Positions 1,852-21,920 of a stretch of DNA of 21,920 bases are shown one piece after another. Made by a program: the position numbers and the translations under genes. The notes below the pieces were generated by a model. It was not told the DNA's origin and searched no databases. It worked only from the letters and a program-made list of their open reading frames with translations. The DNA is from Psammoneis japonica (taxonomy: Eukaryota). The DNA lies in NCBI GenBank assembly GCA_008632985.1, contig QPGO01000186.1, positions 124,001 through 145,920 on the forward strand. Direction: 5' to 3'. Position 1 is the first letter of the stretch, and each line of letters starts with the position of its first letter.

Positions 1852-3897
1852 TCATTCCATGACGAGTGGCTCCCCGCCACCGCCATTTTGTTCCCGAACA
1901 TCATTGATTAGATCAGTATCTACTTTCAATACACCCTTTTCATCTTTGTAAAGAAGGTTCACGAATTGGTATCCAATACTTAAGTCCACAAAATCATATA
2001 TCTTTTGAGCGTAGACGTCTGAGGCACTCACGTTTGAGACACCATTCAAACTCACAAGAATCTGATTGAATTGAAGACTTTCCCTCACTTTAGCGTAGTT
2101 GTTGAGCGATCTCGGCCACGAGCCTTTGCTTCGTCGAATGAGTTTCCTAGCCCTAGGAGTAAGAAGAGGAGAGGTTTCATCAAGAACATGACGAGCCAAC
2201 CAAACTCGTTTGAAAAAAGGGTGCTCGCTTGCCTCAATCAGAAGCTTCGAGAAAATTCTCTTGTTCACAAGCTTTGAAGCTGGGTCCTCGTCCACAGCTT
2301 GATGATCCTTTCCCTTCCCCAGAAAATATGACAGGCCGCTGCCATGAAGAGTGGAGTCCATGAAATTCAACGCGGCACCCGAGTCAGATCCATTCTCGCT
2401 ATTTGAAAATGTCGAGGCAGAGCTGTTCCCCAAGAAACGTTGCCTATCAGTGTTTAGAGCGTCTCGCAGAATAGGATCCGCATCGTCGGCGTCAATGTTT
2501 GCCACACAGTTGAGCGACGCGTCCATGATTTCACCCCCAACTTCCCCAAAGAGGCGATTTACGATACGAAACTCCAACACTGGTAAAGGTAATTTCTGTG
2601 GCAACCCGCTGTCTTCGTCGTTGTTGTCCGCCTCGGCGAATTCATCTTCTACACCACTGCCAAAGCGAATAACGACGGGGTCGCTAAAAAGAACTTGAGC
2701 ATGGCTCTGGATACGGAGAACCTTTCCAAAGAGAATAGCGCCACAGAAACCAGAATATAGAACACCAACGAACGACTCCAACGAGCAAATGATCGTGATA
2801 AAGGCGCAATTCGAAGGATTCGAGTTTTCGTGACCAAGAGCTGGATACGTGCTTCCGTATCCCCTGCAGAGTTCAAAGAGATCGAGAAAATCATCATTGA
2901 GGAACCTTCTTACAAATAAGCATTTTAATATAGATTCCAAAACCAAAGCGAGAACTTACACCGTACTGAAAGTTGTCCAACTCAAAGCAAAGGCATCAGC
3001 AAATTTCGATTTGCCTCCTTGGTTGAATTCTAAGCCTCCGACTCGAACACACTGAGGGTCCATGTCACCAGCAATAATTATGAAACCGGCAAAAATGAAG
3101 GTCAGCCCGAAAAAGACAATGCAACTTATCAGAAACAGAAAGACAAAGTTGACCCTGAACATCCAGTGTAAGTACATTGCAAGGTTTCGCTTCCTGTTCT
3201 CGCCTTCAGCACGAGTGCCCGCGCCGCAACAAATAATACGCCGGTACATTCTCTTTCGCCAGTTGGAATCTCTCTACGGAAACGATAACAGAGATATGAA
3301 CAGAAAGAAATAAAATGAAAAATGATAAACAGAAAGTCATGTCAATTCTTGGCGTAAACCGCAGACTTACACGTCTTGTAGCGGCTAGCCTATACTGCTT
3401 GACTCGACCCTCTTCCAGAGACATGGACTCATCTTGTCTATGGAAACTTGCCTCTAGATTCGCAGGTCGTTCACAGCAGCATACTCGACGGAATAAGTTT
3501 CGCCATCGGTTCATGAATCTCTCTCGAGACCCCATAGCTTGAGCTTGATTCTCGCATCGCACCTGATACCGAGTGATCACAGGCAGAGTGAGTTGAATTG
3601 AATACACAACTTATAATTGACACAAATTGAAAACACAACATCATAAGTATTTAGAATCCCCTTGTTACTTTCGTCACTGGATTTCAACAATTCCGACGTT
3701 GCATAGGGACGTGACAGCGGCTCACGACTTACAAACACGGCTTGGCATCGATCACCCTCTTCATCGGCGGCAGGTGTAGTATCAACCGCCGGTTCTTCAT
3801 CAGCGATACTCTCTGGACGGGAAATACTACGAGCCCGAAGACCACTGGTCGCTCTGGTACCAATGTGCTCTTCCGTGTTGATGTCGTTGTCGACCAT
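1852..3897 (-). CDS. Inward-rectifier (Kir-type) potassium channel, 4 exons: 3897-3733, 3562-3371, 3273-2960, 2863-1852 (560 aa)
   Basis: Three GTAAGT...AG introns (3732-3563, 3370-3274, 2959-2864) join in frame to 1683 nt. Splicing builds the selectivity filter WTTFSTV-GYG. M1 and M2 helices and Kir motifs AQVLFSDPVVI, LEFRIVN and HVLDETSPL are present. An upstream ATG at 3996 is an alternative start. Confidence 0.9.
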
Positions 3898-4061: not shown

Positions 4062-4869
4062 GTCGACAGTGCGTGCCAGAGTTGTGCAAACAGCAGCGAA
4101 GTTATTTTTGTCATTGAAAAATCTCGACGCTGAAAATGCTTGTCGAAAATCGGCTTTCGACAGCCACTAAAACAGTTGCAGTGACTGACGAAAGCCTTTT
4201 TTCGACATCTTCGGTTGCAAGAGAGCTGCAGAGCAAGAGCAAAGTCCTGAAACATTGGGTTCCCTGGCAATTTGTGTGATGTTCATGGAGGCACCTCTCA
4301 TCAACGGAAACTGGCAAATGATTTGAAAGATTTTTGCACGCTTTTGGCGTGCATCTTCAGGCAAATCCGAGGATTGAAATGCCCGGCAACTCCAACAACA
4401 CATTGAACCCCAGCTCCATCCACCCCCCGTCCCTCACTCAAAACAAAAACAAGAAATTGATGCACATGCCATGGCTGTTGACAATGGTGAACCACAACCC
4501 AATTCGCCCAAAAGGAAACAAACTCATCTCCACAAGAAAGCCGTCAAGTCCTGCAAGAAGTGCAGGCAACCTCCTGAAGAGATCGTGGTTCACACCGGGG
4601 CTCCGTCCGCCAGCTGAGCCCAAAGAACCAGAAGAAGCCATCACCACACTGGTGCTTTGAAGCAATGCGGCATGAATGTCCTCAAGAGAATGAACCAAGG
4701 TCATTGAAAATGACATCTTGCTCAGCAAAGCTCTTCATGGTGATGACCACAAAGGCGTCATCAACGTGAACAAAGCTCAGAGGCATGCCACAGCTTGTGC
4801 ATTTTTGAGCTTCTTGACATGCCTCCTGAGGAGGAATGGGATGGTCAGAATGGAGCAATGCTCACAATT

Positions 4870-5150
4870 AAAAAAACCTGCACATCTCTCTGGGATCGAA
4901 TGTCAAAGACATCTTGCACAACATCACTCGCGACCATGAAATCGCATCGAGTGCAGCGGTGACAGGATCACAAACAGCACCATTGGCCTGTGTCCAATTG
5001 TGTCTTTTGGAAAAAAAAACCCTTGGCATCTCCCTGGATCAAATGTCAAAGACATCTTGCACAACATCACTCCAACCACGAAATTGCATTGAGTGCAGTG
5101 GCGACAGGATCACAAATGGCGCCCGTTGGCCTGCATCCAAGTTTGTCTTT
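4870..5150 (+). repeat. Diverged tandem duplication, 2 copies, period 143 bp
   Basis: TGTCAAAGACATCTTGCACAACATCACTC occurs at 4901 and 5044. Most differences between copies are CG vs TG/CA or TG vs CA. Confidence 0.85.
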
Positions 5151-5866
5151 CGATTTGCAAGAAGCCAAGATCGTTGGCAACAACATTGAAAAAGGACTTT
5201 TGGCACCCCAGACAGCTCAACTTTGCAATAAGCACCAGCATGAGCAAGGGAAAACTGCACTTGCAAGTGCTTCTGTTGACAACTTGACAGGGCGGGTGGG
5301 TGCCAAGGCACAGAAAGCCAAGACGACAAAACAAGGGAACAAAGATCCTGACTCTCCCTGGTCATGAGGAAGATGCAATTGGACTTGCCAGCTGTTGGTT
5401 TGGTTGGAAACAATTGGAGCACAAAAGAGAGCTGACAGAGATCCTGAAAGAAGTTCGCTGCTGCTCACACCTCCAGTGTGTGCCGTTGCCATCATTCCCA
5501 AACCTCCCATGGCAAGGAGCTGTTGATGATCAGCTTTCGTCTGGCTTTCTCCTTTTGCACCCGGCCTGTCATTGTGAGAAAACAACCACAACAAACACTC
5601 TCAGCCCTCCTGTTGTCTCAGCACACCCTCATCTGGGGACATTTCAACCCACAATTTTGGGCCCAGCTGCAAACAGGGGACATGGCTGTGGCCAGTTTGC
5701 TTCCTGGCACCCCACACATGCAAAGCAAACAATGGCGCCCCAATTCCCACCATGAATGGTGCAGCAGGGACCTCACTTGGGTGCTGCACCGCCATCAGTC
5801 TCTCAAAACGGTGGACGAAATTTTGAAAGCATGCTTGTTCTGGGGCGTTCAAACGTTCAAATCAAA

Positions 5867-6020
5867 ATGGCTGGGGCCAACTCAAACAAAGGTTTCATTG
5901 CTCAAATCATTGGTCCTGCACTGGACATTGAATTCCCATCAGGAGACTTGCCTCCTGTTTTGAGTGCAACAAAATTGAGCTGGAACACGGCAGCACAACC
6001 ATTGTGAGGTGGCTGCAACA
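5867..6020 (+). pseudogene. atpB: 5' fragment of plastid ATP synthase beta subunit (probable nuclear plastid DNA insertion, NUPT)
   Basis: Translates MAGANSNKGFIAQIIGPALDIEFPSGDLPPVLSATK and, after a 1-nt shift, IELEHGSTTIV. This matches the AtpB N-terminal pattern G.I.QIIGPVLDIEFP.G.LP.I..AIKI..IVEVQQ. Frameshifted and truncated. Confidence 0.85.
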
Positions 6021-6237
6021 GTGTCCGTTCAGGTCTTTAGTTCGCACTTTTCATTTTTGACACATGCAATCGCACTTGCACGTGCCAGCTGCGCACAAAG
6101 ACAATCAACACGGTCTGTCTGCCCATCCACCAGAATCTGCATGATGCGACCACTGCTGTGCTGCGGTGCGGCAGCCCGAGACACTGCAGCAAACTCATTC
6201 AACAACACCCGTGCACCCATGCACTGTGGCCTCGAGA

Positions 6238-6495
6238 TTCATCGTGAGACCCTGCAAATGTGGAGGGACCCTCCTGTGGAGCTCTGCGCGAATTTTTGCA
6301 CGTGGTGCTGAAACATGCAGCCCACACACGCAAAACTGGTGCAGCACAGTTTCTGCAACAAAAATCCGAAAAAACGCCCAGTTCGCGAGATGGCTCTGGC
6401 ACAAAACCTGCGTGAACAGTCCCCACACATTCATGCAGAACTCTGCACATTTCCGGGTTGCGGGTCCTTCCACATTTGTGGGGTCCCACGATGAA
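6238..6495. mobile_element. MITE-like element, 258 bp, with 34-bp terminal inverted repeats
   Basis: 6238-6271 TTCATCGTGAGACCCTGCAAATGTGGAGGGACCC vs reverse complement of 6462-6495 TTCATCGTGGGACCCCACAAATGTGGAAGGACCC (30/34). A subterminal inverted repeat lies inside. No clear target-site duplication. Confidence 0.65.
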
Positions 6496-8844
6496 GATGC
6501 CAGACTTCGTCCTTCAATGCGACCTCAGCCTTGACCACCTCTGCCACAATGGTTTTCCCCACCAAACTGTGTGCTCATTCATTGCCAGGGGTCTCGAGCA
6601 GCAAGGGTTGTAGCGGCACCAGCAGTCATGCTGGCATGCAGACGGCCATCCTGTGGGGTCGCACTCCACATCTCAATTGTCACCTCTTTGCCCCTGCAGT
6701 CGAAGTCAGGTTTGGAGTCGGGACATTTTGCCGCCTCGACCATGAACAAAGATTCAACTTTGTCAATGTCAGACAAAAAAGATGACATCTTTTCCTTGAC
6801 CGATTTTGTGATGACCGATGTGCACAAGATGATCAGCTAGGCCATTTGGAAGGGCGTTGAATGGCAGCAAGATTTGTGTTGTCTCCATAGATTGACCAAG
6901 GCAGAATCATGCAAATGCTTTAGCCATGCTGCATTGCACTTGGGCAACAATGCGTTTCCAGATGATGCCACCAATGAAAAACTCTTTTGCCATGCAAAGC
7001 AAGGTTGGTTCTTTCTCAAAGAGGCAGACCAACTTGCCAAGACTCGCATGAAAGAAGCCATGGATTTGGACCAGTGGGCGGTTGCGCAAAACAAACTGGC
7101 TGGGGTTTGGTGCTGAAAAGGATGTCTTGTGCTTGTCCTTTGCAAGGGAATGCAGATGGGGGCTGTCCCATGAACACCGTGCCTTTTCTGCCAACAAACG
7201 CTGACTTGCGTGGTCTGAGTTTTCGTCTTCTAATGCAACAAGGGCCTTTCTTCTGTTCAGCTGGCTGCCACCACACTTGTCACACCTGTCCAATGGGCCC
7301 AATGCAAGGCAGAACAGTTGACTCCATGGTGCAGTCGACTCTGATGCCAGGGCAAAATGCTGACATTCAATGGTGGCAAACATTTGGGATCTGAAACAAT
7401 TTCTAGTTTCAGAAAAAAACATTAGATTGACCTGACTGACATGCAAGTTCATCTCCTAAAAAGCCATTTGAGTTGCTTCTTTTGCTGTTTGTGCTCCAGC
7501 CGCACTTGGCAATGGCCACAATTTTCTCCAATCTAATTTGCCTGAAAAATTTGCAGTGTCATTTTTGTGAAATTCAGTGGAAGAGGCGATGAATGGCTGC
7601 TGTTGTAATTTCACAGATTGCTGTTTGCTGGAGCAGGCACTGTCAGGTGCCGGCGATGCCCGTGGCGCATGAACGGTGGGCGGAAACTTCCGGCAATCCA
7701 AAGGGGAAGATGCTGGGAGAATGTTTGATGAACCCTGTTGGTCACATGTTGAGTCACACCTGCAGCAAGAGTCCCTCATGCAAAGTCAATCAAATTGACA
7801 ATCGTGGCGAAGCATTTCATTTGGCGGTGCATTGGCTTGATTGTTTGCAGCAGGAAGATCCAGCATGCTTGCCACTCTGCCAAGAACTGTGCCACCATCA
7901 AAGCCAAATTGTTGAAGAATTCAAGCACTGTCAAGGTCATGCTGTCGATCTGGGCAGGTGCTTCTTGTTTGATCCCGACAAAGGCAAAATGGCGATGAGC
8001 CCTTCACCTGCCCTTTCAACCATTTTGGATCATTTTGGATGCTGAAGTGAAGATGTGTTGGGTGCAGCAACATCGGCGCTTGGTTAAAAGAAGAAACATC
8101 CTTCATGTTTGTGGGCATTCAACAGCTCATGTGCACAAATGCTCGCACCACCCTTTTGTTGTGTGTTGTTGCTGCCAGTGTCACCATGTGATGCTGCCAC
8201 TGCAACATCTTGCATCTCACAATCACCAACATCTTGCTGCTCACAATCATCGAGGCGCAGTTGTGGCAGTGGCAGCCATGACATTGTCAACAAGTCAACT
8301 GCACATGCACATGATTTGAATCTGTGCCTGGCATGGTCACAAAATGCAAGTTTGTTTTTCAACTGCGCTGGCTTGTCCTTTCTTTTCAACAATCCCGGCT
8401 TCAATGTTGGCATCGTCAACCACCTCTCTGATCTGGATGGCCAAATCCATCCACCAAAATGACACTGTTGGGACAATCTGTTGAGTTGTCATTGAATCCA
8501 CACTGACTTTGTCAAATGCAGCAAACAGCAGCACTGACCTTTGCCTTCTTGACAAAAAGTCCTCCCCTCAAATTCATTTTGTGCATCGCAAAGCCATCAT
8601 TGAGAGCTCCAACTTTGATCCATCAGCAGCAGCCAGAATTTTGATGGCGTTCCCAATGGCGATGATCCAATGCAAAAGAATGATCAAGTCTTTTGACAGT
8701 CTGCTGCATGCGTTGTTGGAACATGGAACAAACAAATCCCAAAGATGCCACCGATGTGGTTTTCCCTCTAGAGAGTCAGTGGACTTGGAAGCAGCAGGGG
8801 CTGCATGCCCATCATTGACATTGATGGGAAAGTCTGGGTCTTCA

Positions 8845-9092
8845 CACTTCATGATGCAAGCTCTCCATCAAAGAAACAAGTGTCCTGAGAGTCTTCTTGG
8901 TCATGCAATCAGCTGGCATTTGATTGGCGGGCAATGCTCAATCAGTGCATTGCCTCTGATGGCTTGGTCATGGACAAGAAACATCTGATGTTCAATGCAC
9001 TGGTTCGCTGCCCAGAGCTCCTCTTTCATCAGTCTCTGGGAGGATTGCAGCCTTGTTGTCTTGTCAGATGGCATTCCGTGTTGCATCACACC
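8845..9092 (-). mobile_element. Ty1/Copia (CoDi-like) remnant, 3' half of RNase H
   Basis: Minus strand reads GCDATRNAI*QDNKAAILPETD, then FLVHDQAIRGNALIEHCP and MPADCMTK in shifted frames. This matches Copia RNase H (YQDNKSAILLE...IEYCPT..M.AD..TKPL). Confidence 0.85.
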
Positions 9093-9459
9093 TGCACTAT
9101 GCTCGAAGAACGAGTGTAAACGAAAGTAGAATGGTGTACGAAAAGTGGAAATTATAAGATTAAATTTTGCTCTGTGATTTTTGGTTTCTCCGAACGAGTT
9201 CTCAATGGCCTAAAGCTTCTGTACTGCTTCTACAGACAAAAGGCCTTTCGGAGAATATATTCGTGACAACAGATTGTCCGGATACGATTGCTATTGACAC
9301 GTAAGATGTCAACATCGTCAATCGATCGTATTTGCAATTCTCGACATCCGATCAACTCTGTGTGATCGTTCTGTCCTTTGTACGCATCCACGACTGTGGT
9401 ACGATTGACATGTGAATAATATATAATCATAAATATGTATATAACAGTCGCATACTGCA
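9093..9459 (-). repeat. 3' LTR of the non-autonomous Gypsy element (367 bp)
   Basis: 360/367 identical to 13464-13830. Terminal inverted repeat TGCACTATGC...GCATACTGCA. Confidence 0.95.
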
Positions 9460-9471
9460 TTCGCCTCCCTA
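9460..9471 (-). other. Polypurine tract of the non-autonomous Gypsy element
   Basis: Minus strand AGGGAGGCGAA directly precedes the TG of the 3' LTR. It resembles the PPT of the second Gypsy (GGGGAAGCGAG). Confidence 0.8.
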
Positions 9472-12400
9472 ATTGCACATTAGAGTCATTTGTAAGTGGA
9501 TTATTCGACGGACATCGACAGTGTCAATAATGTCTCCACTTTCACTGTATTGTGCCATTAGCAATAACTGTTGTTGTTTTGTATAGGCAATATAGGGCCG
9601 TTCCAATTTCCGAATGTCTTTTGAGAGTGACATTGTTTGTTTCTCACTTAACATGTATATATATAGTATTACGTCGAGCATTCTCATTGACGTTCTTGTT
9701 GACATGAACACAAGGACTAATTGTCCTGGAGCAAGTGTTTTTCCTGACATCGATTGTACATAGCATCGTGCCCAGCACTTAATGTACGCTCTTAATTATG
9801 GCGTTCACTTGCTTGCTTCTTGTGGATTTCATGCAGTTTGGCGGGCTTGCTTTACATGCCATGTTGCTCTGCTGCACTGCCACGTTTCACAAGCAACAAC
9901 AAACGATGGTCAAAGACATTGTGACCATTTCGTCTTGACAATCAATCCTGTGATGGTCATGAATTCCATTGTGGATTTTTTTTTTTTGCACTTCAACCAT
10001 CTATCAGTTGGATTTTAATCGTCATTTGGACGTTTCTTTCTGACACACCGGTGTCATTTTGTCATTCCGAAGGCACTGGTTTCGTGCACCAAGTGGACAA
10101 ATGTCCATTTTTCTTTTCTTTTTCTAGATCTTTGGCACATCTCGTGTGTCGACATGATGCACATTTTAATGTCTTGCCTCGTACATTGTACAACACAACC
10201 GCACGGGTGTTGTGAGATTGTCTTTTGCCAGTGTGAAGTGGGTGCGTATAATGTGCACCAATCTGTCACTGTTTTTTCCTAAATCGCCCTTCAAAAAGGC
10301 GATTTTATCCTTGTGACATGAGCATTTTTCGATCTCGCTCGCCTCCACGAAAAGTGTTCGTATGATGTGTCGCGTCCGACAATTTGGAGGGAATGTCTTC
10401 ATCCCGTTTTAACGGCAGGACATTGTCGCAGGATTCAATTTTCTGTGGCAAGTCGGCTGATCGCGTCTGTCGCGACGATGTTCGCCTTGCCCTCGTTGTG
10501 TTCTAATTCGGGACTGAAGTTGTCAACGTGTGACTTTGTCCGTTGTGTCTTGTGATCCATGTGTGCATAAATCTGTTGGCCAAACAGCATGTTTCGGAAT
10601 TTTGTGAGTGTTTTCACCATGGACAGAAGTTCTTTTTTCCGTTGTGACGCACAACATTGAAATCCGTGCATGACAACAACACAGTTTTTGATTTGATGCA
10701 CTCCACATTTTCGGAGACTTTTCGTTCCGCACTTGTGCTTTTGCCGTTTGACCTTTGTTGAGGTGAATTTGGCTGGCATTGCACAGGAGATCGTTGAGAC
10801 TGCATGTCTCGACAACAGCAACGCATGACAACGAGATGTCGCAGTGTTCTTTGCGTTTTTCTCGTGTTGCGATTGCTTGAATCGCCTCCATTTTCTTTGC
10901 AATCGATTGCATGTCGTTGCGTGTGGAAGTCTTGATAGTTCATTTCAAGTTAAACAGTGAAGGACTTTTGTTGTCAACCTTCTAAGCGACTGTTCTGGTC
11001 GTTTGAATGCCGCGTTGAGCTGTTGCTTGTGCAGGTGACATTTTGAAGTTACTTTTGTCAGGCACAAACGATCACATGTGGTCATTCTGACAACTTCAAA
11101 CCTGTCATGAGTTCACTCAAGTGTTGTGCAAAAACATCTGGGGCTCTGTGGATTCTCATTGGAAGTCCACAGTGCTCATTTTCTCCCCACGGCATGATTT
11201 TCGTGTGAGCACGACGTGTGCTTTTTTTATTTGACATGGTGGCATTCCATGTTTGAATCAAATGGATCACACACATGAAACGTTCTTGCTTCAATGGCAT
11301 TTCCTGAATGTTGGGCAAAGGACACACCACCTGTGTGAACCTCACACTGAGCTTCTGAGTGTCGGATGCGGTCGAACTCGACCTGTTTTCTTCAGACAAT
11401 GAGTCTCAGAGCGACTCATTCAGAGCAACTTCATTCTCAAGACTTCAATCTTTCACAATGGGTCAAACTCCTTTTGATTGGATGCCTCCAAAGACTGTGA
11501 CAGGAGAAGGTTCTCACGCGTCGTGGAATCGCGTCAGATTTTCCACGATGAGATCCACTGATGCTTCCCATGCATTCGTCTGAGGAACTTTTCAAAACGA
11601 TTTCAACCTCTTAAGAAGAAGATTGAGTTGGTTGTGTTCATTTGGGTTAGATGCATCGCCGCAGTTGTCACTTGATTGAGATCGATGGCGTGACAATGTG
11701 AGTCGAGGACCATTGGTTCCATCATCAACTCTGTTCACGGCGTCACATTTTTCAATGTGATCGGTTTTCAGCTTGAAAACATCGGCATCGAAGAGTGTGT
11801 GAACATTCTTCATAAGGTAATTGCTTCTTCCCATTAGATTTCTTCATTTGCGTAGTCCAATGTGACTTGCAGGACTGGACATTAAGTCGCGTCCCATGAT
11901 CACATCATTCGAACCTGAAGAAAATTTGGTGTTTTCAACATTCACTGTTTGCATGTCAGCATGCCTTAAATTTTCGCACAGTGAGAACTGAATTCGGTGT
12001 TTACTATCAGTCGTAAAGAGCTCACCCTTGGTTTCCCAAGTTTTTGGTGGCGGATTCTTGTGTTCTCAACTTTCGCACGAATTTGCGCAAAATTGTGGTT
12101 GACGATGTTCCGTTATCGACAGGAACACGTAGATGCTTTTTTTTTTTTTTTCTCTCCTTTCCCAAGGAAGTGTTCATACAAATGATGACTCCTGGACTAG
12201 TGTGAATTATTTCTGCCTTTTTTCTAGGCTTCCTAACATCCAGCAAAGCATGTAATTCGTGAATAGACCAAAATTATTCTTCGGATTCAGTCTGGATCAT
12301 CCGATCAAATTGGCATTTTTCTTCACTGAGGGTATCAGAATCTGATTCTTTGCCCTTATGCTCTTTTTCTTTGTTCAAGGAACTCGCTTTGAGCATTTTT

Positions 12401-13463
12401 TGAACCGCCTGATCAATCATGACGTTCATCTCTTTTTTTGCGAGCGGCATTTTCGTTGTCGCGACGCGACCGCGTGCGATTGCCATTTGAACGGCGCATT
12501 TTTGGGTCTCTTTCAGAGTCACCCTTGCACTCTTTTGCTAGTTCATTTTTAGAACAGCTTCAATCCGTGATGTAGGTATTCTTTTTTCAAAGATAAGACC
12601 TTGCATTCACTTTGGATTGTTCTGGTACCACACAGGAGACCATTTTTGGAACCAAATTTGGAACCTTTTTTATTTTGGAACCAACTGCGCTATCAGAGCC
12701 TGAGTTGATATGTATTTTCGTCACGGACGTCATGAACGACCTTTAGATGACTCAAAACTTAATCAGCTCATCAAGGATGAGTTGCAATAGTTGATTGTTT
12801 TGGACAGTAGACTGATGCTGCCATCCTTGCGGTGCGAGTGATGGCCAATAGCTCACGGCTCGGTTTCCCGCTAGATTCAACATAGAATCGATTGAAGGGT
12901 CGTGTGGACGCTCTTCATTGACCTCTTGGGTCGAATGGGCACTCTCTTGCTGCTGAGAGCCTTGGGTTTCTTCAGATCATCTCGAAAATAATGATTCTGA
13001 TTCTGAAGTGCAATTCTTGGAGGACATGAGATAAGAGACTCTTAAGGTACTTTCCAATGGTTCCATCTTGCTCTTGGACTCGAGGCTCGTCGATTCGGTC
13101 TCTAAAAACTCTCCAATAGTCTCTCCTTGCATGCCAGACGTATTTCTCGGACCTGATCGACTCAAGACTTGAAATTCTACCCAACCATGACTTGGTGTGG
13201 ATATTTCGACAATGCTGTGCTCTTGTAGAGTCCTTGGTCCTGAGACACTTGGAATGGATCGTATTAGAACGAATCTTGTCATTTGCTAGACGAAAAACAG
13301 CGTTCCATCTTGAGGTGCTGCTCGGATTGAGCTTCTTCCGCTCGGAAATCGATTCCAGCAGAACTGATGCGATTCGTTCCTGTTTATAGAAGAATTTACA
13401 AAGGCACATTAGTTAAAATTTTCATTTTCCGTGCTTTTTACCTTCTGTGGTGTGTATACACAA

Positions 13464-13830
13464 TGCACTGTGCTCGAAGAACGAGTGTAAACGAAAGTAG
13501 AATAGTGTACGAAAAGTGGAAATTATAAGATTAAATTTTGCTCTGTGATTTTTGGTTTCTCCGAACGAGTTCTCAATGGCCTAAAGCTTCTGTACTGCTT
13601 CTACAGACAAAAGGCCTTTCGGAGAATATATTCGTGACAACAGATTGTCCGGATACGATTGCTATTGACACGTAAGATGTCAACATCGTCAATCGATCGT
13701 ATTTGCAATTCTCGACATCCGATCAACTCTGTGTGATCGTTCTGTCCTTTGTACGCATCCACGACTGTGGTACGATTGACATATAAATAACATATAATCA
13801 TAAATATGTGTGTAACAGTCGCATACTGCA
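13464..13830 (-). repeat. 5' LTR of the non-autonomous Gypsy element (367 bp)
   Basis: Direct repeat of 9093-9459 with 7 substitutions and no indels, followed by CACC. Confidence 0.95.
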
Positions 13831-13834
13831 CACC

Positions 13835-14420
13835 CTTGTGCCTCCACAAAGAGCTTGGTTCACAAGACCATCACACTGCAATCATCGACGGTGACAAGCT
13901 CTGCAGTTGTGCTGGAACTGGCGCTCAGCTTCTGTTTTCATGAGATCCATTGAACAGCTCCTCTTTGGATGTTGTTGAAGATCTGGGTGCCTCTGGCATG
14001 GCTCTTAAAATCAGATGTGCTGCAAAACTTGCATTGACAAACCATTTCACCACAGAGATGTCTCACTCGGTGCCAATTTGTTGAGCGCTGAACTTGGTGC
14101 AATCCAGCCATTTTGTCACAATGACAAGACTCTGCTGCCAATTGTTCTCAGCAGGTTCCTTTGCTCTTGCACACAGGACTGCAAAAACATGTTGGATGTC
14201 CTCACCCTTTTTAGCATGCTTGCAATTGAACAGAGCCTTCTTGGCAACAAAGGTCCTGAAGATCTCATTCGCCACTTTTGGCCGAGCAGTTTGTCAGGCT
14301 TGTGATCAAATGGATCATCTTGAGCTGGGTTTGCACAAGTGACATCAGGCACAAACTTGATGGGGAATTTGTTTGCCATTGACACGACACACTGGATCAT
14401 GTCCATCTCTGGGATTTTCC
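13835..14420 (-). mobile_element. Ty1/Copia (CoDi-like) remnant, end of RT and 5' half of RNase H; continuous with 8845-9092
   Basis: Minus strand reads DMIQCVVSMANKFP, EIFRTFVAKKALFNCK..DIQHVFAVLCARAKEP, VKWFVNASFAAH, and DFKSH..S*KQKLSASSSTTAELVTVDD..TKLFVEAQG. Confidence 0.88.
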
Positions 14421-14449
14421 AACCAATGAGCTGTTTGTCTCTTCATCTG

Positions 14450-14670
14450 TGTAAATTGCCAATGTTGTGAGGTTCAATGCACTTCCCAGTGGCTGGTCAA
14501 TCTGCCTGAAATTTTGTGCATTCGGCCAATGAGAAGTGGGTCCCACCAGCCAGCATCTGCCCTCCACCAATTTAGTTGGGCAGGCTTGTCAATTTTGGCT
14601 TGCTTGTTGTGCAGACAGTTTTGGGTTGCAGGCTTGACTTGTTTGATTGCTTCCAACACACTCCTGTTCC
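14450..14670 (-). mobile_element. Possible Copia PPT/3' LTR start (CAGGAGTG|TGTTGG, LTR starting at 14658)
   Basis: Minus strand GGAACAGGAGTGTGTTGGAAG resembles the junction I recall for diatom Copia elements. No partner LTR in the window and the extent is uncertain. Confidence 0.4.
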
Positions 14671-15430
14671 ACACTGATCAGGGTGCAAGGTTGAATGATG
14701 CATGGAAGATTGTGGGTCTGCAAAGCTCCAGATCTGGAGTCACAGCTCCAGGACATCTGGATCCAGGTTGTGTCCATCTGTCCTCTCCCCAGTGAGCTCC
14801 ACCCGGATGACATTCGTTGCATCACACTCACACACATGTGATGTGGATGGCATTGATTAAGGCTGGGTCCATTGCAGTTACAGGACAATGTAGAATTCAG
14901 TCTAGTGCGGCTTTGGTGCAGCTGTTGTTGGTCGTACAGTGGGCCAAGTATCAGCAACACATGAAACAGCAATGTAATGTTGTGCGGTAGATGCTGTTTT
15001 GGTGTGTCGACTACGGTGACAACACCGATGTTCGACGCATCGCCTACGGCGACAACAACAACGAGAATAGCCGGTCGTCGTTGGTTAACCACGCTGACAA
15101 CTGGAAGAAACACAAACGTCATCGAAACAACCTTCTCTGGTGTATCAATGCAGCCAAGAACGGGCATGAACAGGCGATAAATGGATTTGAAACGACTATG
15201 TTAATAAGGAAACAACTAAACTGGACACTTCGGGTCCTCGGCATGTCATCGGATAGAATGGAACGAAGTAGCGACGACATATTGCAAGTGTAAAATAGGA
15301 TGGCAAGGATCGACGTAACGTGTAAACGCGGCGGTCCCATTCAACACTTCATTCTTCAAGCTGGCTCGTGGTATTGTAGATAAGTTGTCATCACCATCAT
15401 CTATTCCTAGTCAAACCTCCCCACCGATCA

Positions 15431-16393
15431 TTATTTCTTTTTCTTCGGATCAGGCTTGTTGTTCAGGTAGATGTACCATTGAAGAGCGGTTGCAACCGCG
15501 ACCCAACCACAGGTAGGCAAAAGGTAGTAACCTGCCACTTTATCCAAGTCGTAGAACAAGTACGCACTGCTCAATAGGCATGCAAAGAACAGGGTGATTA
15601 CGGCCGCGCCACGACCGGGACATTGCAGACCAAAGAACACTTTATTCCAAGTGTCACCCAATGCCAGATGGGAGCAGTACACGAACAGCACCCCCAATGG
15701 AAGTGACGTCGTCCCGTCGATTTTTGACGTGCCATATTTTAAGATCCTTGACACACCACATAACTGTGTGGGTTTACTGATCAAGAGCCACATGATCGGG
15801 AAGACGTATCCTGGTGGATTCCACCATGGTTTCTTAAGTTGAGAATACCATTGGCTATCTCCCGGGATGACGTCCGGTGCGAGAACTTGGTTGGTAGCGG
15901 CAGAAAGCCCTCCATCGATGAACGATCCGAAGAAGGAGCTAGCGAAGATGATAAGGAATGCTGCCACAAGCTGTGTCAAGGGCAAGTTGAAGACAGACGG
16001 TATCGAATCGGGATACTTGTCAGACAATGCCACACTTCCCACTAAGGTCCCTAACATCACCACCGCCTCCAATACAGCGCTGATCGCAAGCTTGGCGAAT
16101 AGACTTGGATCGGAATCAGCACATCCCCCACCACGTAGTGTTTCTACCAATATCAAAGTCGAAGACGGTAAATGACTTGTTAGTCCATTGACATTGGGAA
16201 CATCGATTTCTTTGTCGATACTGTGACGACGGGGATGAAGGCTGTGACGTTGTTGCTGTTGGTGAAGCGTAACGGTGGCCCAACCGTTCGGGTTCGGAAC
16301 TGCATCGACACCACCACCCGCGAGTCCCAACAACAACAAAAAAACACCACCACAAGAAGTGATATACAAAGCGAGACGCGTTCCAATCTTCAT
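15431..16393 (-). CDS. tspO: TspO/MBR family protein with signal peptide and N-terminal extension (320 aa)
   Basis: Motifs WYSQLKKPWWNPPGYVFPIMW, WNKVFFG and LLPTCGWVAVATALQWYIYLNN. Likely start MKIGTRL at 16393 (ORF open to 16462), with a hydrophobic signal peptide, a TLRGG motif and C-terminal KKKK. Confidence 0.9.
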   Translation of the reverse strand: MKIGTRLALYITSCGGVFLLLLGLAGGGVDAVPNPNGWATVTLHQQQQRHSLHPRRHSIDKEIDVPNVNGLTSHLPSSTLILVETLRGGGCADSDPSLFAKLAISAVLEAVVMLGTLVGSVALSDKYPDSIPSVFNLPLTQLVAAFLIIFASSFFGSFIDGGLSAATNQVLAPDVIPGDSQWYSQLKKPWWNPPGYVFPIMWLLISKPTQLCGVSRILKYGTSKIDGTTSLPLGVLFVYCSHLALGDTWNKVFFGLQCPGRGAAVITLFFACLLSSAYLFYDLDKVAGYYLLPTCGWVAVATALQWYIYLNNKPDPKKKK

Positions 16394-16827
16394 GGCGATC
16401 CGATTCAAGTTCAGTACCGGTAGAAATGTTGTTGTTGTTTCTATTTCAATTTCACGGTTCATTTTTTTAGGGTTTTTTAGGGAAACCTTTTATTTACGGT
16501 ATCCATACTGTACTGTACGGTACTTACGCTGTGTGTGGAGTTCAAGCACGTGCAACGTCACCCAGTGGCGCGGGGGGAGGGCAGACCCAAGATGATCCGC
16601 AGATCGAAGATCCTGGATGTCTCGCCTCTTCTCGCCTGGGACCTGGGACAATCATTATGGTAACATACTGGTAACAAGCCTTGACGCTCCGCCCTTTTCG
16701 ATTCCCTCCTGAAGCAGAAGTACTAGTAGGTCGAAACGAGAAGGTCTGAAGATCGAGGAAGCAAAACGTTAATAGTGTGTAATTCTCTCTTGCATTTGAT
16801 CTGTTGATTCTTCTCTAATTTTCCGCA

Positions 16828-17944
16828 ATGTCGTCAGTGCCTGAAACCATGAAGGTATGTACAGTAGATGAAAGAACAAGCTTGAAGTGTGGTGCACGTT
16901 TTCCTTTTAACTTTCAAATCCACCAAACACCAAACGACTCAATTCCCATCGCAGGCAGTAGTGATTCATGCTACTGGTGATGCTCAATCTCTCAAGGTCA
17001 CGACCGATTATCCGACACCAACTCTCGAGCCCGGCCAGGTCCTGGTCAAGAATGAATTTGCAGGAATTAACTTTATCGACACCTATCACCGCAGTGGACT
17101 GTATCCTCGTAAGTTGCCCTTTATCCTTGGCGTGGACGGTGGTGGCGTTGTTGTTGCGGTAACTCCCGAGGCTGCTGACGTCAAAGTGGGAGATCGTGTT
17201 GCCTACAGCATGGTGGAAACCTATTGCGAATACACGGCGGTGCCGGCATCCAAGCTTGTTCCTGTTCCGGACGATATGGACATGACGGTTGCTGTAGCGT
17301 GCATGGTCCAGGGCTTGACGGCTCACTACCTCACCACGTCGGCTCATGCAAACCTGATTCAAAAAGGAGAATGGTGTCTCATTTACAGTGTTGGTAGTGG
17401 AACTTGTCAGTGGGCCGCTCAAATGGCAAAAGCAAAAGGTTACAAGGTGATTGGAACGTGTTCCAAAGGAAAGGCTGACGCTGTGCGAGCACTGAATTGT
17501 TGCGACGAGCTCATTGTGTTGGAAGAAGTTCAGGGAGCGTCGTATTCGGATTACAGCAGCGTGGATATAGTTGAAAAAGTAATGGAGGTTTCGGGTGGGG
17601 AGGGCGTGAAATGCATTATTGATGGAGTTGGAAAGTCAACGGCCGACGTTTCATTGAGTTGTCTCGCAACAAGGGGCATTTTCATTTCGTTTGGCAACGC
17701 GTCAGGGCCTGTACCTGCCTTTCCAGTGCTAAAACTGGGTGGAAAGTCAGCTTTTGTGACTCGCCCAAAGGCGAGCGATTACACAGCCACGCGTGAAGAA
17801 CTCATGGATCGAGCGCGCGATGTGTTCGGTTGGGTAAAAGACGGAACACTGAAAATTGTGGTGGACCAGGTGTTTGCCTTGGAAGATGCTGTGGATGGTC
17901 ACGTCTATCTGTGCCAAGTGGCGCCAAGTAATAGTATAAAGTAG
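16828..17944 (+). CDS. qor: NADPH:quinone oxidoreductase (zeta-crystallin/MDR family); exons 16828-16854 and 16955-17944; last 10 codons are LTR-derived
   Basis: MSSVPETMK, a 100-nt GTATGT...CAG intron, then AVVIH. Motifs AGINFIDTYHRSGLYP, VQGLTAHYL, DGVGK and FGNASG. Similarity stops at HVYL (17911), where the LTR begins. Confidence 0.9.
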
Positions 17945-18223: not shown

Positions 18224-20728
18224 TTAGAAGACAGGGTGAAGACGGCGGATATTGATACGTTCAGTGACGTGAGGCGAGCGCTGGATGGTAACGGTTCCAT
18301 TGGTATGGACACGTACGATACGGAAAGGACCATCTTTGGTGTTGAGTTTGCGTTGGATGTCTTTGGTCATAACGAAGACTTGATCGCCGATGTTGTAGTC
18401 GTAAGTAAGACGTTTTGCGTTTTCGCGGAGATTATTGCGTAGGACATCGCGCTTGCGACGGGTATTAATCATTTTCCAGTTCGCAAGATAAGTAGCAGAA
18501 ATGACCATGTCTCGACCGAAGACAATTTGTCCGGGAGACGACATAAGGGCAGTATGGTAGGTACTGCGCAAGGCCCATGCAACGGATTGCAAAATTCCAT
18601 GAATTGTGTCTTCATCATGATCGCGAGAAGGGAGATCCATCGCACGGAGAGAATCGGCTATTACTTGATGAATACGTTCAACGAACGCGTTGGCTTGAGG
18701 ATTCTTGATTGTTGTAGGTTTCGGTTTAACACCATAACTGTAGAGGAGATCTGTAAACTCGGAAGTGAATTCGGAACCGTTGTCATAAATGACAATTTCT
18801 GGTCGCGGATAGCGACAAAACCACTCGCGATCGACGATAAGTGAAATGTCTTCGGACGTTTTGAACTTATAGTTCGCGAGTTCGACCCAACGGGTTGCGA
18901 CATCAATAATTGAAACGGCTCTGATTTTGCGATCGACACCATTTTTGTCGGCACACGTCCAGGGACCGAAAAGATCGACTTGAGTTGCCTGCCAAGGTTT
19001 ATAAGTAGTATCTGGAAGAGGTAATTCGCCATAGTTTGCCGTAGCACGCTTGGATTTGGAACACGTGCGGCACTTACGGACAAAAGTGCGGACTTTCGTC
19101 TGCATGTCGCGAATGTAAAAATGTGAAGCCAAAGTTTGGCAGGTGCGATTGGCACCAGGGTGGCAGAGAGTTTCATGGTGCCACCGTAGAACTGCAGGAA
19201 AAAGCGTTGGAGGGAGGACAATCTTGTTCTTGTAAAGGACAATCTGTTTTCCATTGAACAGTTCGGCTGAGCAGGATTCGGACTTGTCGAGTCGTTGCTG
19301 AAGAGCAGAATTTTTTTTCTGATGGTCGGCGACAATGTCGAAAGTAATGGGGAATGTCGAAGGATCGATTTCCAACGAAGTCATTTCCTCGTAATCGCTT
19401 TGATCGACTTGGACAATGGGATGGCGGCTCAAAAAATCAGCCACGACATTCTCATGGCCTGGCAGGCACTCGAAAGAGCAATCGCACTCCTCGAGAAGTA
19501 AACGCCAGCGTTTGACGCGTTCTGACTTGAATTTGTCAAATGCAAGATTTTTGTGATCGGCAAATGGGTGGCATCGATGACCAAAAAGGATGCTTTTGAA
19601 ATTTTCGGTCGTTTCCACGAGCGACAGCAGCTCTTTTTCCATTGTCGTGTAGTTTCGTTGCGCTTGAGACAATTTTCGGCTGTAGAATGCAATTGGCCAT
19701 TCGCCATCATCAAAATCTTGAGCAATCACTGCACCAAGTTGACAATCACTCGCATCCGGATAGATCTTGAAAGGTTGAGAGAAGTCGGGGAATCGGAGGA
19801 GGATTTCGCGCGCCACAATTTTTTTCATCTGATTGAAAGCTTCCGTGTGGACGTCAGTCCACTTGAATTTGACTTTGTCTGATGACAGCGCAGTTAAGGG
19901 CGCAAGAGTGTGGCTGCGTCGGCACCACAATTTCTTGCAATGATTCACGAACCCGATGAAACCACGCAATTGTCGACGGTTTTGAGGGCGAGCGAAGCAA
20001 AGTGAGGGTGGGATTTTCTTTTTCTGAGGCTGAGTGCCTTTTGCAGTCATGGTGCAGCCCAAGCAGTCGACGGTCTTGGCGGCGAGATGGGATTCTTCGA
20101 CATGTGCGTGAAGATTGTTCGCGAGGAGCCGTTGCAAGACGAGTTTGAGTCGTTGACAGTGATGGTTGAAGTTGTTCTTGGCAAAGAGGATGACATTGTC
20201 GATGCAGACTATGATGTCTTCCATGTCATGAAAAATGTCTGTCATGCAAGCTTGAAAAATGTCGCTTGCCGGTTTGATTCCTTGCGGCAGGCGGTTGCAG
20301 CAATGCTTGCCCCACGGCAGGATGATGCCGCAGAGTTTTTTTGACTCGTCGTCAAGCACGAAGTGACAGTAGCCTCGGTTGAGGTCCAAACATGTCGCAT
20401 GGGCAAAGCCGTTCATTTTCCATGCGACGTCGTCGATGACAGGCAGTGGATGTGGATGCCGTTCGAGACACTCGTTGAGTTTCCGTAAATCGGACAAGAA
20501 ATGGATGCCACCGCTTTTCTTCGATCGGAAAAGACAGGATGCGTCCCAAGGAGAGTGAAGTTTGCGCGTGATGACATCGATTTTTTCCAATTCATCCACT
20601 TCTTTGCGAGCCATGGGACACAACGCTTGCGGAACAGTGCAAGCTTTCGCACAGCATGGACGCGATCCTGGTTTCAGGGTCAAATGGACGGGTTTACCGG
20701 GTGCAGCTCCAAGTGTGCCATCGAACAA
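18224..20728 (-). pseudogene. pol: Gypsy pol (RT-RNase H-integrase), open for 834 codons but with a mutated RT active site (CIDN for YIDD)
   Basis: RT motifs LDLNRGY, RLPQG and VCIDN; RNase H DASD..LGAV and EKELL; integrase HHCC finger, VDLFGP, DNGSEF and NPQANAFVER. Confidence 0.93.
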
Positions 20729-20832
20729 TTGCGGGTCGTCCGAAGAGTTCGATGAGTTGGTGCTGTTGATCGTTCAAGGTGTTTGCAGCGTAGAACCATG
20801 TCGCGACAATTGTGCTTGTCGTGCATTGCTCG

Positions 20833-21270
20833 TCATACCTCGAACCTGACGGTTGACGGCATTCTGGAAGAACTTGGGCAATTCAGCATCGCCGGGATGA
20901 ATTGCATTAACTTCGACTTGGTCGAAAGAGCCCTTGGATCGCATGGATAGGGTACATCGTCCCACGTGATTGTTTGATGTCGAAAATCAAAAACGAGTCC
21001 CATTTCTGTGGCGGTTTTTCTTCCGATGACAATGTCGTGTTTTCCTGCGGCTTTGTCTTCCACACAAGCATCGACGGAAACCTTCTTGGACGATGCGAAG
21101 TCTGGGAACTTCAATGTCAGCGTCGCAATCTCGTGTAGATTAACGGCACTGTAACGGCCTTTAACGGGAACGTCATTTACGGATTTTGTGAGGAATCCCG
21201 CGAAGGGCTGAGCGCTTCACAAAATTGCGATTTGCGCCGGATCGAGTAGCAACACGGAACTTGTGCATTC
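20833..21270 (-). pseudogene. Gypsy aspartic protease region, frameshifted
   Basis: LLD(S)GANRNFV at ~21220-21255 needs a 1-nt correction. KHDIVIGRKTATEMGLVFDF..ITWD follows downstream. Confidence 0.75.
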
Positions 21271-21321
21271 CAGAATGAGTGTCAATCATCTGGACACGCG
21301 CTTCCGTGGTAAGATTGTCTT

Positions 21322-21920
21322 CTATTCGGATTCGATNNNNNNNNNNNNNNNNNNNNNNNNNNNNNNNNNNNNNNNNNNNNNATCGTCTGACGCGACGCTA
21401 TCGACATCGTTAGAAGCGGAGCGACTAGCTTTGGAGTCCACATTGTTGTTTTCGACGTTCCGTGTGCGGCTCCGTGTAGGACAGCGGTGTGTCGGCTCGT
21501 TTCGAGAGTTGTTTTGTTGATTCGGCGCATTCCGATTTGCGCGGTTCCGCTCATAATTTTCACGTTCACGACGGATGACATTGCACTCTTGACCGTTCGG
21601 ATGTACAACGCCATGGATTGGACATGTTTGTTCACGATTGTTTTGGTTCCTGTTCCTGGTGCGATTTTGGTCGTTGTTCTGGCCGCGACGCGCATTTCGA
21701 CCGTTGTTGCGTCGATTCCAATTGTTGTTGCGTCTGTTGTTGTCGGTAGACCCTTTGTCACCACGTTGTTCCATACGTCGGAGAGTCTCGTAGTTTGAGC
21801 TTGGTCGTTCAAGTTTAAGTTGCGAAGACGGGCTTTAGTCTGAGTTTCGGCCCATGATCTTGGTCCACATTTTCGAAGGATTACGGATAATTCCGCTTCC
21901 GTGAATGACGGAACTCTTTC
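21322..21920 (-). CDS. gag: Gypsy gag C-terminal part (Asn/Arg-rich, CPIH-x3-H-x5-C knuckle), partial
   Basis: ORF 21322..21774 contains CPIHGVVHPNGQEC and lies upstream of the protease. It spans an N gap. Confidence 0.7.
21337..21381. other. Assembly gap (45 N)
   Basis: Run of N in the sequence. Confidence 1.

Follow-up and report, generated by a model that had tools for sequence, protein, structure and literature searches.

To our knowledge, the eukaryotic hypermutation defenses known until 2026 acted on cytosine, as do repeat-induced point mutation (RIP) and the APOBEC enzymes. RIP, which is found in ascomycete fungi, is a C-to-T process that converts CpA to TpA and creates both TpA dinucleotides and stop codons; it requires duplicated sequence and a pre-meiotic stage. 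APOBEC3 edits the cDNA of retroelements, leaving G-to-A or C-to-T changes, and ADAR hyper-edits double-stranded RNA (dsRNA) with a loose preference for a 5' U. Here, we describe a 21,920-nt stretch of contig QPGO01000186.1 (positions 124,001 to 145,920) of the diatom Psammoneis japonica, referred to below as the window, in which an old insertion and parts of two Gypsy-type long terminal repeat (LTR) retrotransposons appear to have lost most of their TpA to TpG and CpA. Related literature includes PMC7296669 for RIP and PMC4866542 for APOBEC3 and ADAR editing.

The closest described system is found in the chlorarachniophyte Bigelowiella natans and was reported in a 2026 preprint (Mettrop et al., bioRxiv 10.64898/2026.01.13.699255). 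In mutation-accumulation lines, 231 of 302 nuclear single-nucleotide mutations fell in an integrated giant virus and virophage, where the rate was approximately 6e-7 per site per generation. All but one of the viral mutations were A-to-G or T-to-C, and all of those occurred on TpA. De novo changes came in bursts, and in some lines only, at rates of approximately 1e-7 to 1e-6 per site and generation. The authors also count 124 TpA-poor clusters and 324 genes low in TpA, among which reverse transcriptase and DDE domains are enriched, and they propose that an ADAT2-like DNA adenine deaminase is involved. This preprint was the only account of TpA hypermutation that we found in the literature, and no report from a diatom was found. 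The initial annotation of the window, which had proposed a host process of this kind, knew of no description of one; that statement is superseded by the preprint.

The two cases have much in common. In both, change is restricted to TpA, consists of A:T-to-G:C transitions that give TpG or CpA, and affects foreign segments, silent in B. natans and probably so in the diatom, with ordinary sequence around them; TpA depletion with enrichment of CpA and TpG, and action on DNA that is single-copy (in the diatom, by contig depth), are likewise shared. The dinucleotide restriction, the direction, the presence of both products and the confinement that characterize the B. natans type were each found in the window. 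The host, however, is a stramenopile rather than a rhizarian, and the targets are LTR retrotransposons, an element resembling a miniature inverted-repeat transposable element (MITE) and a piece of host-gene pseudogene, rather than integrated viruses. The depletion is also deeper here, with an observed/expected (o/e) ratio of 0.05 compared to a Rho of 0.45 in the giant-virus region of B. natans, and CpG decay accompanies TpA loss in the old insertion, unlike in the B. natans data presented. Finally, de novo mutations were measured in B. natans, whereas the present evidence consists of a footprint and an LTR clock. What is new here is the diatom lineage and the new targets of a process known from one 2026 preprint.

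TpA depletion within sharp borders

Every TpA in the window was listed (619 in total), and dinucleotide o/e ratios were counted in sliding windows. The old insertion falls into two parts, of which block A (4169-9092) contains 15 TpA, compared to 321 expected from base composition and 210 expected from the ratio in the host flanks (TpA o/e of 0.66), and block B (13831-14857) contains 4, compared to 68 and 45. None of 1000 shuffles came near these counts, the minimum being 285 for block A and 48 for block B. The initial annotation had estimated about 14 TpA on the left and 4-5 on the right, in good agreement. TG and CA are in excess, as had also been noticed: the o/e ratios for TA, TG, CA and CG are 0.05, 1.78, 1.66 and 0.41 in block A and 0.06, 1.75, 1.96 and 0.18 in block B, while those for AA, AT, TT, GA and AG all lie within 0.87-1.31. 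The strong depletion of CpG is a correction to the earlier description.

The borders are as sharp as had been claimed. On the left, the TpA at 4168 is followed by the next one only at 4869, and on the right, the TpA at 14573 is followed by one at 14858. Within the window, the depletion of the old insertion is confined between 4168/4169 and 14857/14858, and the host flanks remain at background levels of TpA and tyrosine. Neighboring genes are spared: the host genes in 15434-17941 have a TA o/e ratio of 0.66 and 3.4-3.7% Tyr, and host frames overall contain 1.9-3.7% Tyr, compared to 0% in a monomeric isocitrate dehydrogenase (IDH) pseudogene piece in block A and 1.0% in the TpA-poor half of the pol frame of a Gypsy element, element D. 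The single signature that had been drawn over 4170-14860 holds for the two blocks, but the 9093-13830 interval between them is a younger LTR retrotransposon, element C, with near-normal TpA in its LTRs. Two more partial TpA-poor blocks with normal CpG, neither of them named in the initial annotation, were found at 10250-11810 (block C, in element C) and 19240-20790 (block D, in element D; TA o/e of 0.11 each), the second of them outside the interval first considered.

A general AT-to-GC bias, such as GC-biased gene conversion, together with CpG decay in a recombining or methylated region, is the least probable of the explanations that we considered. CpG decay through 5-methylcytosine deamination is indeed present in blocks A and B, as the CG ratios show, and it feeds TG and CA; indirect evidence of this kind suggests that the old block behaves like methylated DNA. 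However, CpG decay co-occurs with the loss of TpA and cannot produce it, and blocks C and D and the LTR differences described below lose TpA without loss of CpG. The G+C content of the depleted blocks (0.46-0.55) is not raised, AA, AT and TT are not depleted, and every LTR difference lies at a TpA. The dinucleotide table already contradicts a general bias.

The sequence itself was compared with contigs from sequencing run X1, the one of three listed runs that holds the stretch (65% of sampled words present); no RNA run is listed as holding it. The X1 contigs are built of exact 31-mers, have a k-mer depth of approximately 56 at single-copy level and reach 315 kb; site differences from run contigs are among the 40 of 707 differing places that were listed. 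A 1976-bp contig at depth 56 covers 7142-9092 with 23 differences, and the 21 of these that were listed comprise 12 of CpG type, 3 of TpA type and 6 others. A 4123-bp contig spans the left border. Runs X2 and X3 leave most of block A uncovered, and nothing is concluded from this. The TpA-free state is reproduced by accurate reads. Some base-callers err systematically at modified bases, and a modified base at the TpA of silenced DNA could in principle have been miscalled, the true sequence being TA; the library type of X1 is unrecorded and the run may derive from the sample of the assembly itself. We nevertheless consider a sequencing or assembly artifact very unlikely. Noisy reads would not yield exact 31-mer contigs at a depth of about 56, and a miscall would need an efficiency close to 100% in block A yet approximately 11% in the LTRs next to it. 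Block A is old, degraded DNA in any case, as its CpG decay and indels show, and the same spectrum was obtained from Illumina mutation-accumulation lines of B. natans.

Direction of change and action on integrated DNA

Conserved tyrosines provide one view of the ancestral state. For the pol frame of element D, consensus-Tyr columns were defined as those with Tyr in at least 70% of 57 relatives. The 14 such columns in the TpA-poor half read Cys in 8 cases, Tyr in 3, and His, Asp and Phe in one each, while the 6 in the integrase half, which has normal TpA and 3.8% Tyr, read Tyr in 3 and His, Trp and Phe in one each. When 22 such columns were compared across 120 relatives, Cys stood in 8 of them and His in 2 in the window copy; none of the 120 relatives has Cys and none has more than 2 His. 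The reverse transcriptase (RT) motif reads Cys-Ile-Asp-Asn, where Tyr-x-Asp-Asp is expected. For the IDH piece, 130 of the 150 relatives listed could be aligned over 80 residues or more. Its four conserved Tyr columns contain His, His, Cys and Phe, so that three of the four are His or Cys; two conserved Arg columns read Cys, as results from CpG decay. The same comparison on element C runs through pol frames with many stops and an alignment of approximately 24% identity. A metagenome scan with the element D pol returned three loci at 22-39% identity, too distant for base-level comparison, and these were not used.

Sister copies provide a second view. In the MITE-like element, five sites (6400, 6410, 6426, 6436 and 6445) are CA or TG in the window and TA in other copies, the TA state accounting for 43-68% of the contig depth in X1 and for all of the depth in a second run, X2. 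Paralogous pairs also show three adjacent CA-versus-TG double differences, two between tandem copies in block A and one between the arms of the MITE-like element, which is the trace expected of two independent hits on one ancestral TA. Because of the Tyr columns, the MITE-like sister copies and the double differences, the direction of change is read as TA to TG or CA, the reverse of fungal RIP. Both products are present, as seen in the excess of TG and CA in block A, the replacement of Tyr by both Cys and His, and six TG and one CA among the LTR differences, and the earlier proposals of an effect on both strands and of a region-restricted conversion imposed by the host are borne out by these comparisons and the LTR pair.

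These replacements also bear on whether the pattern could be intrinsic, through avoidance of TpA or UpA (for example under an RNA-degrading or restriction activity) or descent from a TpA-poor donor. TpA is under-represented in most genomes, and the host flanks have an o/e ratio of 0.66. Such an origin is nonetheless highly improbable, slightly more so than an artifact: conserved and catalytic tyrosines have been lost, including the one in the RT motif; Cys replacements of this kind are absent from all 120 relatives; a fragment of a host-type pseudogene bears the signature; and the sister copies of the MITE-like element retain TA.

Fungal RIP was rejected as a candidate. It shares with the process described here a host-imposed and region-restricted flood of transitions in one dinucleotide context, with sharp borders and the disabling of repeats. 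Under the present process, by contrast, TpA is destroyed without any stop being created. The 10-20 fold depletion of TpA, the enrichment of CA and the many open frames point in the direction opposite to RIP. The TpA-free 7142-9092 stretch is at single-copy depth (56), which bears on the RIP requirement for duplication only as far as its copy number was the same at the time of mutation. Many overlapping open frames of 80-180 codons, without detectable relatives, occur on both strands of block A because conversion of TA to TG or CA never makes a stop and removes TAA and TAG. These frames could be miscalled as genes.

The two LTRs of element C provide an internal clock. The element is flanked by the target-site duplication CACC (9089-9092 and 13831-13834), and this duplication, together with the LTRs around an RT/ribonuclease H (RNase H) region, indicates that 9093-13830 was inserted into one continuous TpA-free block. 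Both LTRs of an element derive from a single template and do not differ when it integrates. Those of element C are now identical at 360 of 367 positions and have near-normal TpA counts (28 and 27). All seven differences are TA versus TG (six) or TA versus CA (one), and there is no other difference. TpA-class changes make up 107 of 367 possible transitions, giving a probability of 1.8e-4 that all seven would fall in that class. Counted by base, 7 of 62 TpA have changed but none of the 610 other bases (Fisher P = 4e-8), which places the rate ratio above 23 (95% bound). If TA is ancestral, each LTR originally had 31 TpA and has lost 3 or 4. As LTRs that were identical at integration differ solely at TpA, the hypermutation acts on DNA that is already in the chromosome.

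The LTR differences occur in pairs 2 bp apart within TATA-like runs (9412/9414 and 13810/13812). This spacing hints that several TpA are converted per event. In a single case, read by eye, an X1 contig fragment looks like the end of this LTR in a form where none of the four TpA has escaped conversion.

Partial blocks, mechanism and meaning

Blocks C and D complicate a purely chromosomal account. Block C has 13 TpA compared to approximately 75 expected (CG o/e of 0.97), and block D has 11 compared to approximately 65; the depletion in block D weakens by degrees on the gag side and stops close to where integrase begins. The two blocks cover roughly the same RT/RNase H region of their elements. 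They may have been inherited from source copies that were already mutated, which is possible because the element C family is present in very high copy number. Recombination while the RNA was being reverse-transcribed could also have made them mosaics. A third possibility is a stage with a strand bias, either in RNA or cDNA or on the non-template strand.

One explanation for such blocks is ADAR-like hyper-editing of retroelement dsRNA, formed from sense and antisense transcripts and fixed by reverse transcription. It would account for blocks C and D, which lie within retroelements, stop inside them, have normal CpG and occupy roughly the same region. It may also fit the pol frame of element D, where sense A-to-G change (Tyr to Cys in 8 columns) exceeds Tyr to His (1-2), and the high-copy element C family could have propagated a mutated source copy. 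Like APOBEC3 and ADAR activity, the pattern described here may be deaminase-type editing that inactivates retroelements and is fossilized in the genome. It differs in its strict dependence on TpA, its action on integrated DNA and its non-retroelement targets. RNA editing does not explain the old block, and the signature extends beyond retrotransposed sequence to the LTR differences that arose after integration, the MITE-like element and the IDH piece. In addition, AA, GA and CA are untouched, compared to the loose 5' U preference of ADAR, and the changes in B. natans occur in integrated DNA that is present as a single copy. We consider RNA editing an unlikely explanation.

We consider it likely that the pattern results from DNA-level, TpA-specific hypermutation by a host process. 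Such a process would convert TpA to TpG or CpA: on either strand, the A of the dinucleotide would undergo an A:T-to-G:C transition. The process would act on chromosomal DNA, limited to repeat-derived or foreign and probably silenced segments, at a pace much above ordinary mutation until almost no TpA is left. Coding capacity would be lost through conversion of Tyr codons to Cys or His codons, with no stop codon made. Its targets also include sequences other than retroelements, namely the MITE-like element, the IDH pseudogene piece and the stretch at single-copy depth. We infer that the process is a defense and that its targeting follows silent or methylated chromatin. By analogy with the ADAT2-like enzyme proposed by the B. 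natans authors, its chemistry could be adenine deamination in DNA, a suggestion that we hold tentatively and at somewhat less than an even chance. The initial annotation had put forward adenine deamination, a modified base or error-prone repair, in silenced chromatin, as candidate mechanisms.

Several observations weigh against DNA-level hypermutation by the host. Confinement and generality rest on one window of approximately 22 kb, and polarized events are few (10 pol Tyr columns, 3 IDH columns and 5 MITE sites). The seven LTR differences are not themselves polarized. The contrast between the two halves of the element D pol is weak alone (Fisher P = 0.04 for Cys and 0.12 for Cys plus His). 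Tyr-to-Cys replacements outnumber Tyr-to-His in that frame (8 compared to 1-2). Such a bias between strands is not what a DNA process acting symmetrically would lead one to expect; these counts are small and confounded by the 3' context of Tyr codons, and strand balance estimated from TG and CA o/e ratios is unreliable in blocks C and D, where base composition is skewed. Both partial blocks end inside their elements and have normal CpG, which simple domain-wide targeting does not explain. The X1 run may be the sample from which the window was assembled, and it is not counted as independent support.

In a broader reading, which we judge about as probable as its opposite, diatoms and chlorarachniophytes would share a TpA-specific DNA-editing defense. 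A plausible agent is an adenine deaminase that is directed to foreign DNA in a silent or methylated state. Transposons, MITEs and stray gene copies would be edited where they lie, in clusters of hits, and the defense would either be of ancient origin within the stramenopile-alveolate-rhizarian supergroup or have evolved more than once. It would still be active, because the LTRs of a recent insertion are marked. The erasure of TpA by hypermutation may be a widespread way of disabling foreign DNA. A diatom footprint would extend the process across a deep split among eukaryotes and would add transposons, a MITE and a pseudogene to its targets, with near-complete exhaustion of TpA as the end state. 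Hypermutated copies retain long open frames, lose Tyr and escape domain searches, which bears on repeat annotation in diatoms. Models of mutation rate in phytoplankton are concerned as well, as is the hunt for an enzyme that naturally edits adenine in DNA; if the process operates as proposed, a tractable diatom species would make the enzyme and its targeting signal findable. The LTR pair of element C provides an internal clock for action after integration.

Composition of the old block and its surroundings

The features of the window are listed in the table. Blocks A and B are one old, CpG-decayed insertion that was split by element C. Block A is composite: X1 contig depth is 369 at 4162-4492, compared to 56-82 at 6810-8795 and a single-copy level of 56, so that the left end is repeated a few-fold and the sequence is single-copy from approximately 6810. 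The tandem copies at 4860-5145 differ by two adjacent CA-versus-TG double differences and nine differences of CpG type. The inverted repeat of the MITE-like element was detected after purine/pyrimidine collapse, and its X1 depth is 1731 compared to the single-copy 56.

Features of the window and the evidence for each
Feature	Coordinates	Strand	Evidence or remark
Block A, left part of the old TpA-free, CpG-poor block	4169-9092		TpA and dinucleotide counts, X1 depth
Tandem duplication, approximately 143 bp	4860-5145		Inside block A
MITE-like high-copy element	6238-6495		Inverted ends of approximately 45 bp; inside block A
Monomeric IDH pseudogene fragment	7605-8039	+	Pfam PF03971, E 3.2e-19
Element C, young Gypsy-like LTR retrotransposon	9093-13830	-	Inserted into the old block; RT/RNase H similarity
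LTRs of element C	9093-9459, 13464-13830		367 bp, TG...CA ends
Block C, partial TpA-poor block	10250-11810	-	RT/RNase H region of element C; normal CpG
Block B, right part of the old block	13831-14857		Starts with the target-site duplication CACC (13831-13834)
TspO/MBR-like host gene	15434-16489	-	Pfam; unaffected
Zinc-type quinone reductase-like host gene	16886-17941	+	Pfam; unaffected
Element D, second Gypsy element	18230-21920	-	Runs off the window end; tblastn with full-length relatives
Open pol frame of element D	18227-20773	-	849 codons; Pfam RVT_1, RT_RNaseH_2, Integrase_H2C2, rve
Block D, partial TpA-poor block	19240-20790	-	Protease/RT/RNase H part of element D; normal CpG

The unrelated sequences that had been said to share the signature are in part different from those named at first. 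The MITE-like element, the IDH piece, anonymous repeats and parts of the two Gypsy elements do carry it, but a Copia element and a plastid fragment were not confirmed. A Pfam search of 100 frames of at least 45 amino acids from blocks A and B, with E values up to 0.1, detected neither Copia nor gag nor integrase domains, and the wider Pfam search covered 41 window frames of at least 100 amino acids; IDH is the sole match above the curated cut-off in the two blocks. Neither an Rfam match (E up to 0.01) nor a tRNA was found, and three frames over 6145-6531 gave one chance-level match (E 0.15) among PDB sequences, so that a fragment of plastid or RNA-gene origin did not emerge from these searches. 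For the longest open frame in block A, on the minus strand at 6910-7455, no relative was found. The IDH piece corresponds to profile positions 602-734 of 734, and only the C-terminal approximately 140 residues are present (tblastn).

In X1, depth is approximately 10,000 over element C and 66,000 over its LTR, compared to 56 for single-copy sequence; this would correspond to a family of approximately 100-200 copy-equivalents with many solo LTRs. The pol frames of the copy in the window are full of stops, and the family may be non-autonomous. The 1976-bp single-copy contig stops exactly at the insertion point, 9092/9093, which could be an assembler repeat boundary or an insertion polymorphism. 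In element D, an assembly gap of 45 N lies in the gag region (21337-21381).

Diatoms supply the best named relatives of the quinone reductase-like gene, with identities of 63-73% (Cyclotella, Corethron, Grammatophora, Eucampia and Mayamaea), which marks the host as a diatom. Toward the left end of the window, the 1251-2000 interval, between two host open frames, is rich in TpA and poor in TG (o/e of 1.27-1.35 and 0.54-0.55); this bias is opposite to that of the hypermutated blocks, and the interval is most probably intergenic or promoter sequence rich in A and T. In an X2 contig, position 3560 is followed directly by 3731; the missing 170 bases (3561-3730) start with CT and end with AC. Read on the minus strand, these are GT..AG ends, which gives the segment the look of an intron spliced from a host gene on that strand. 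Run X2 may be derived from RNA.

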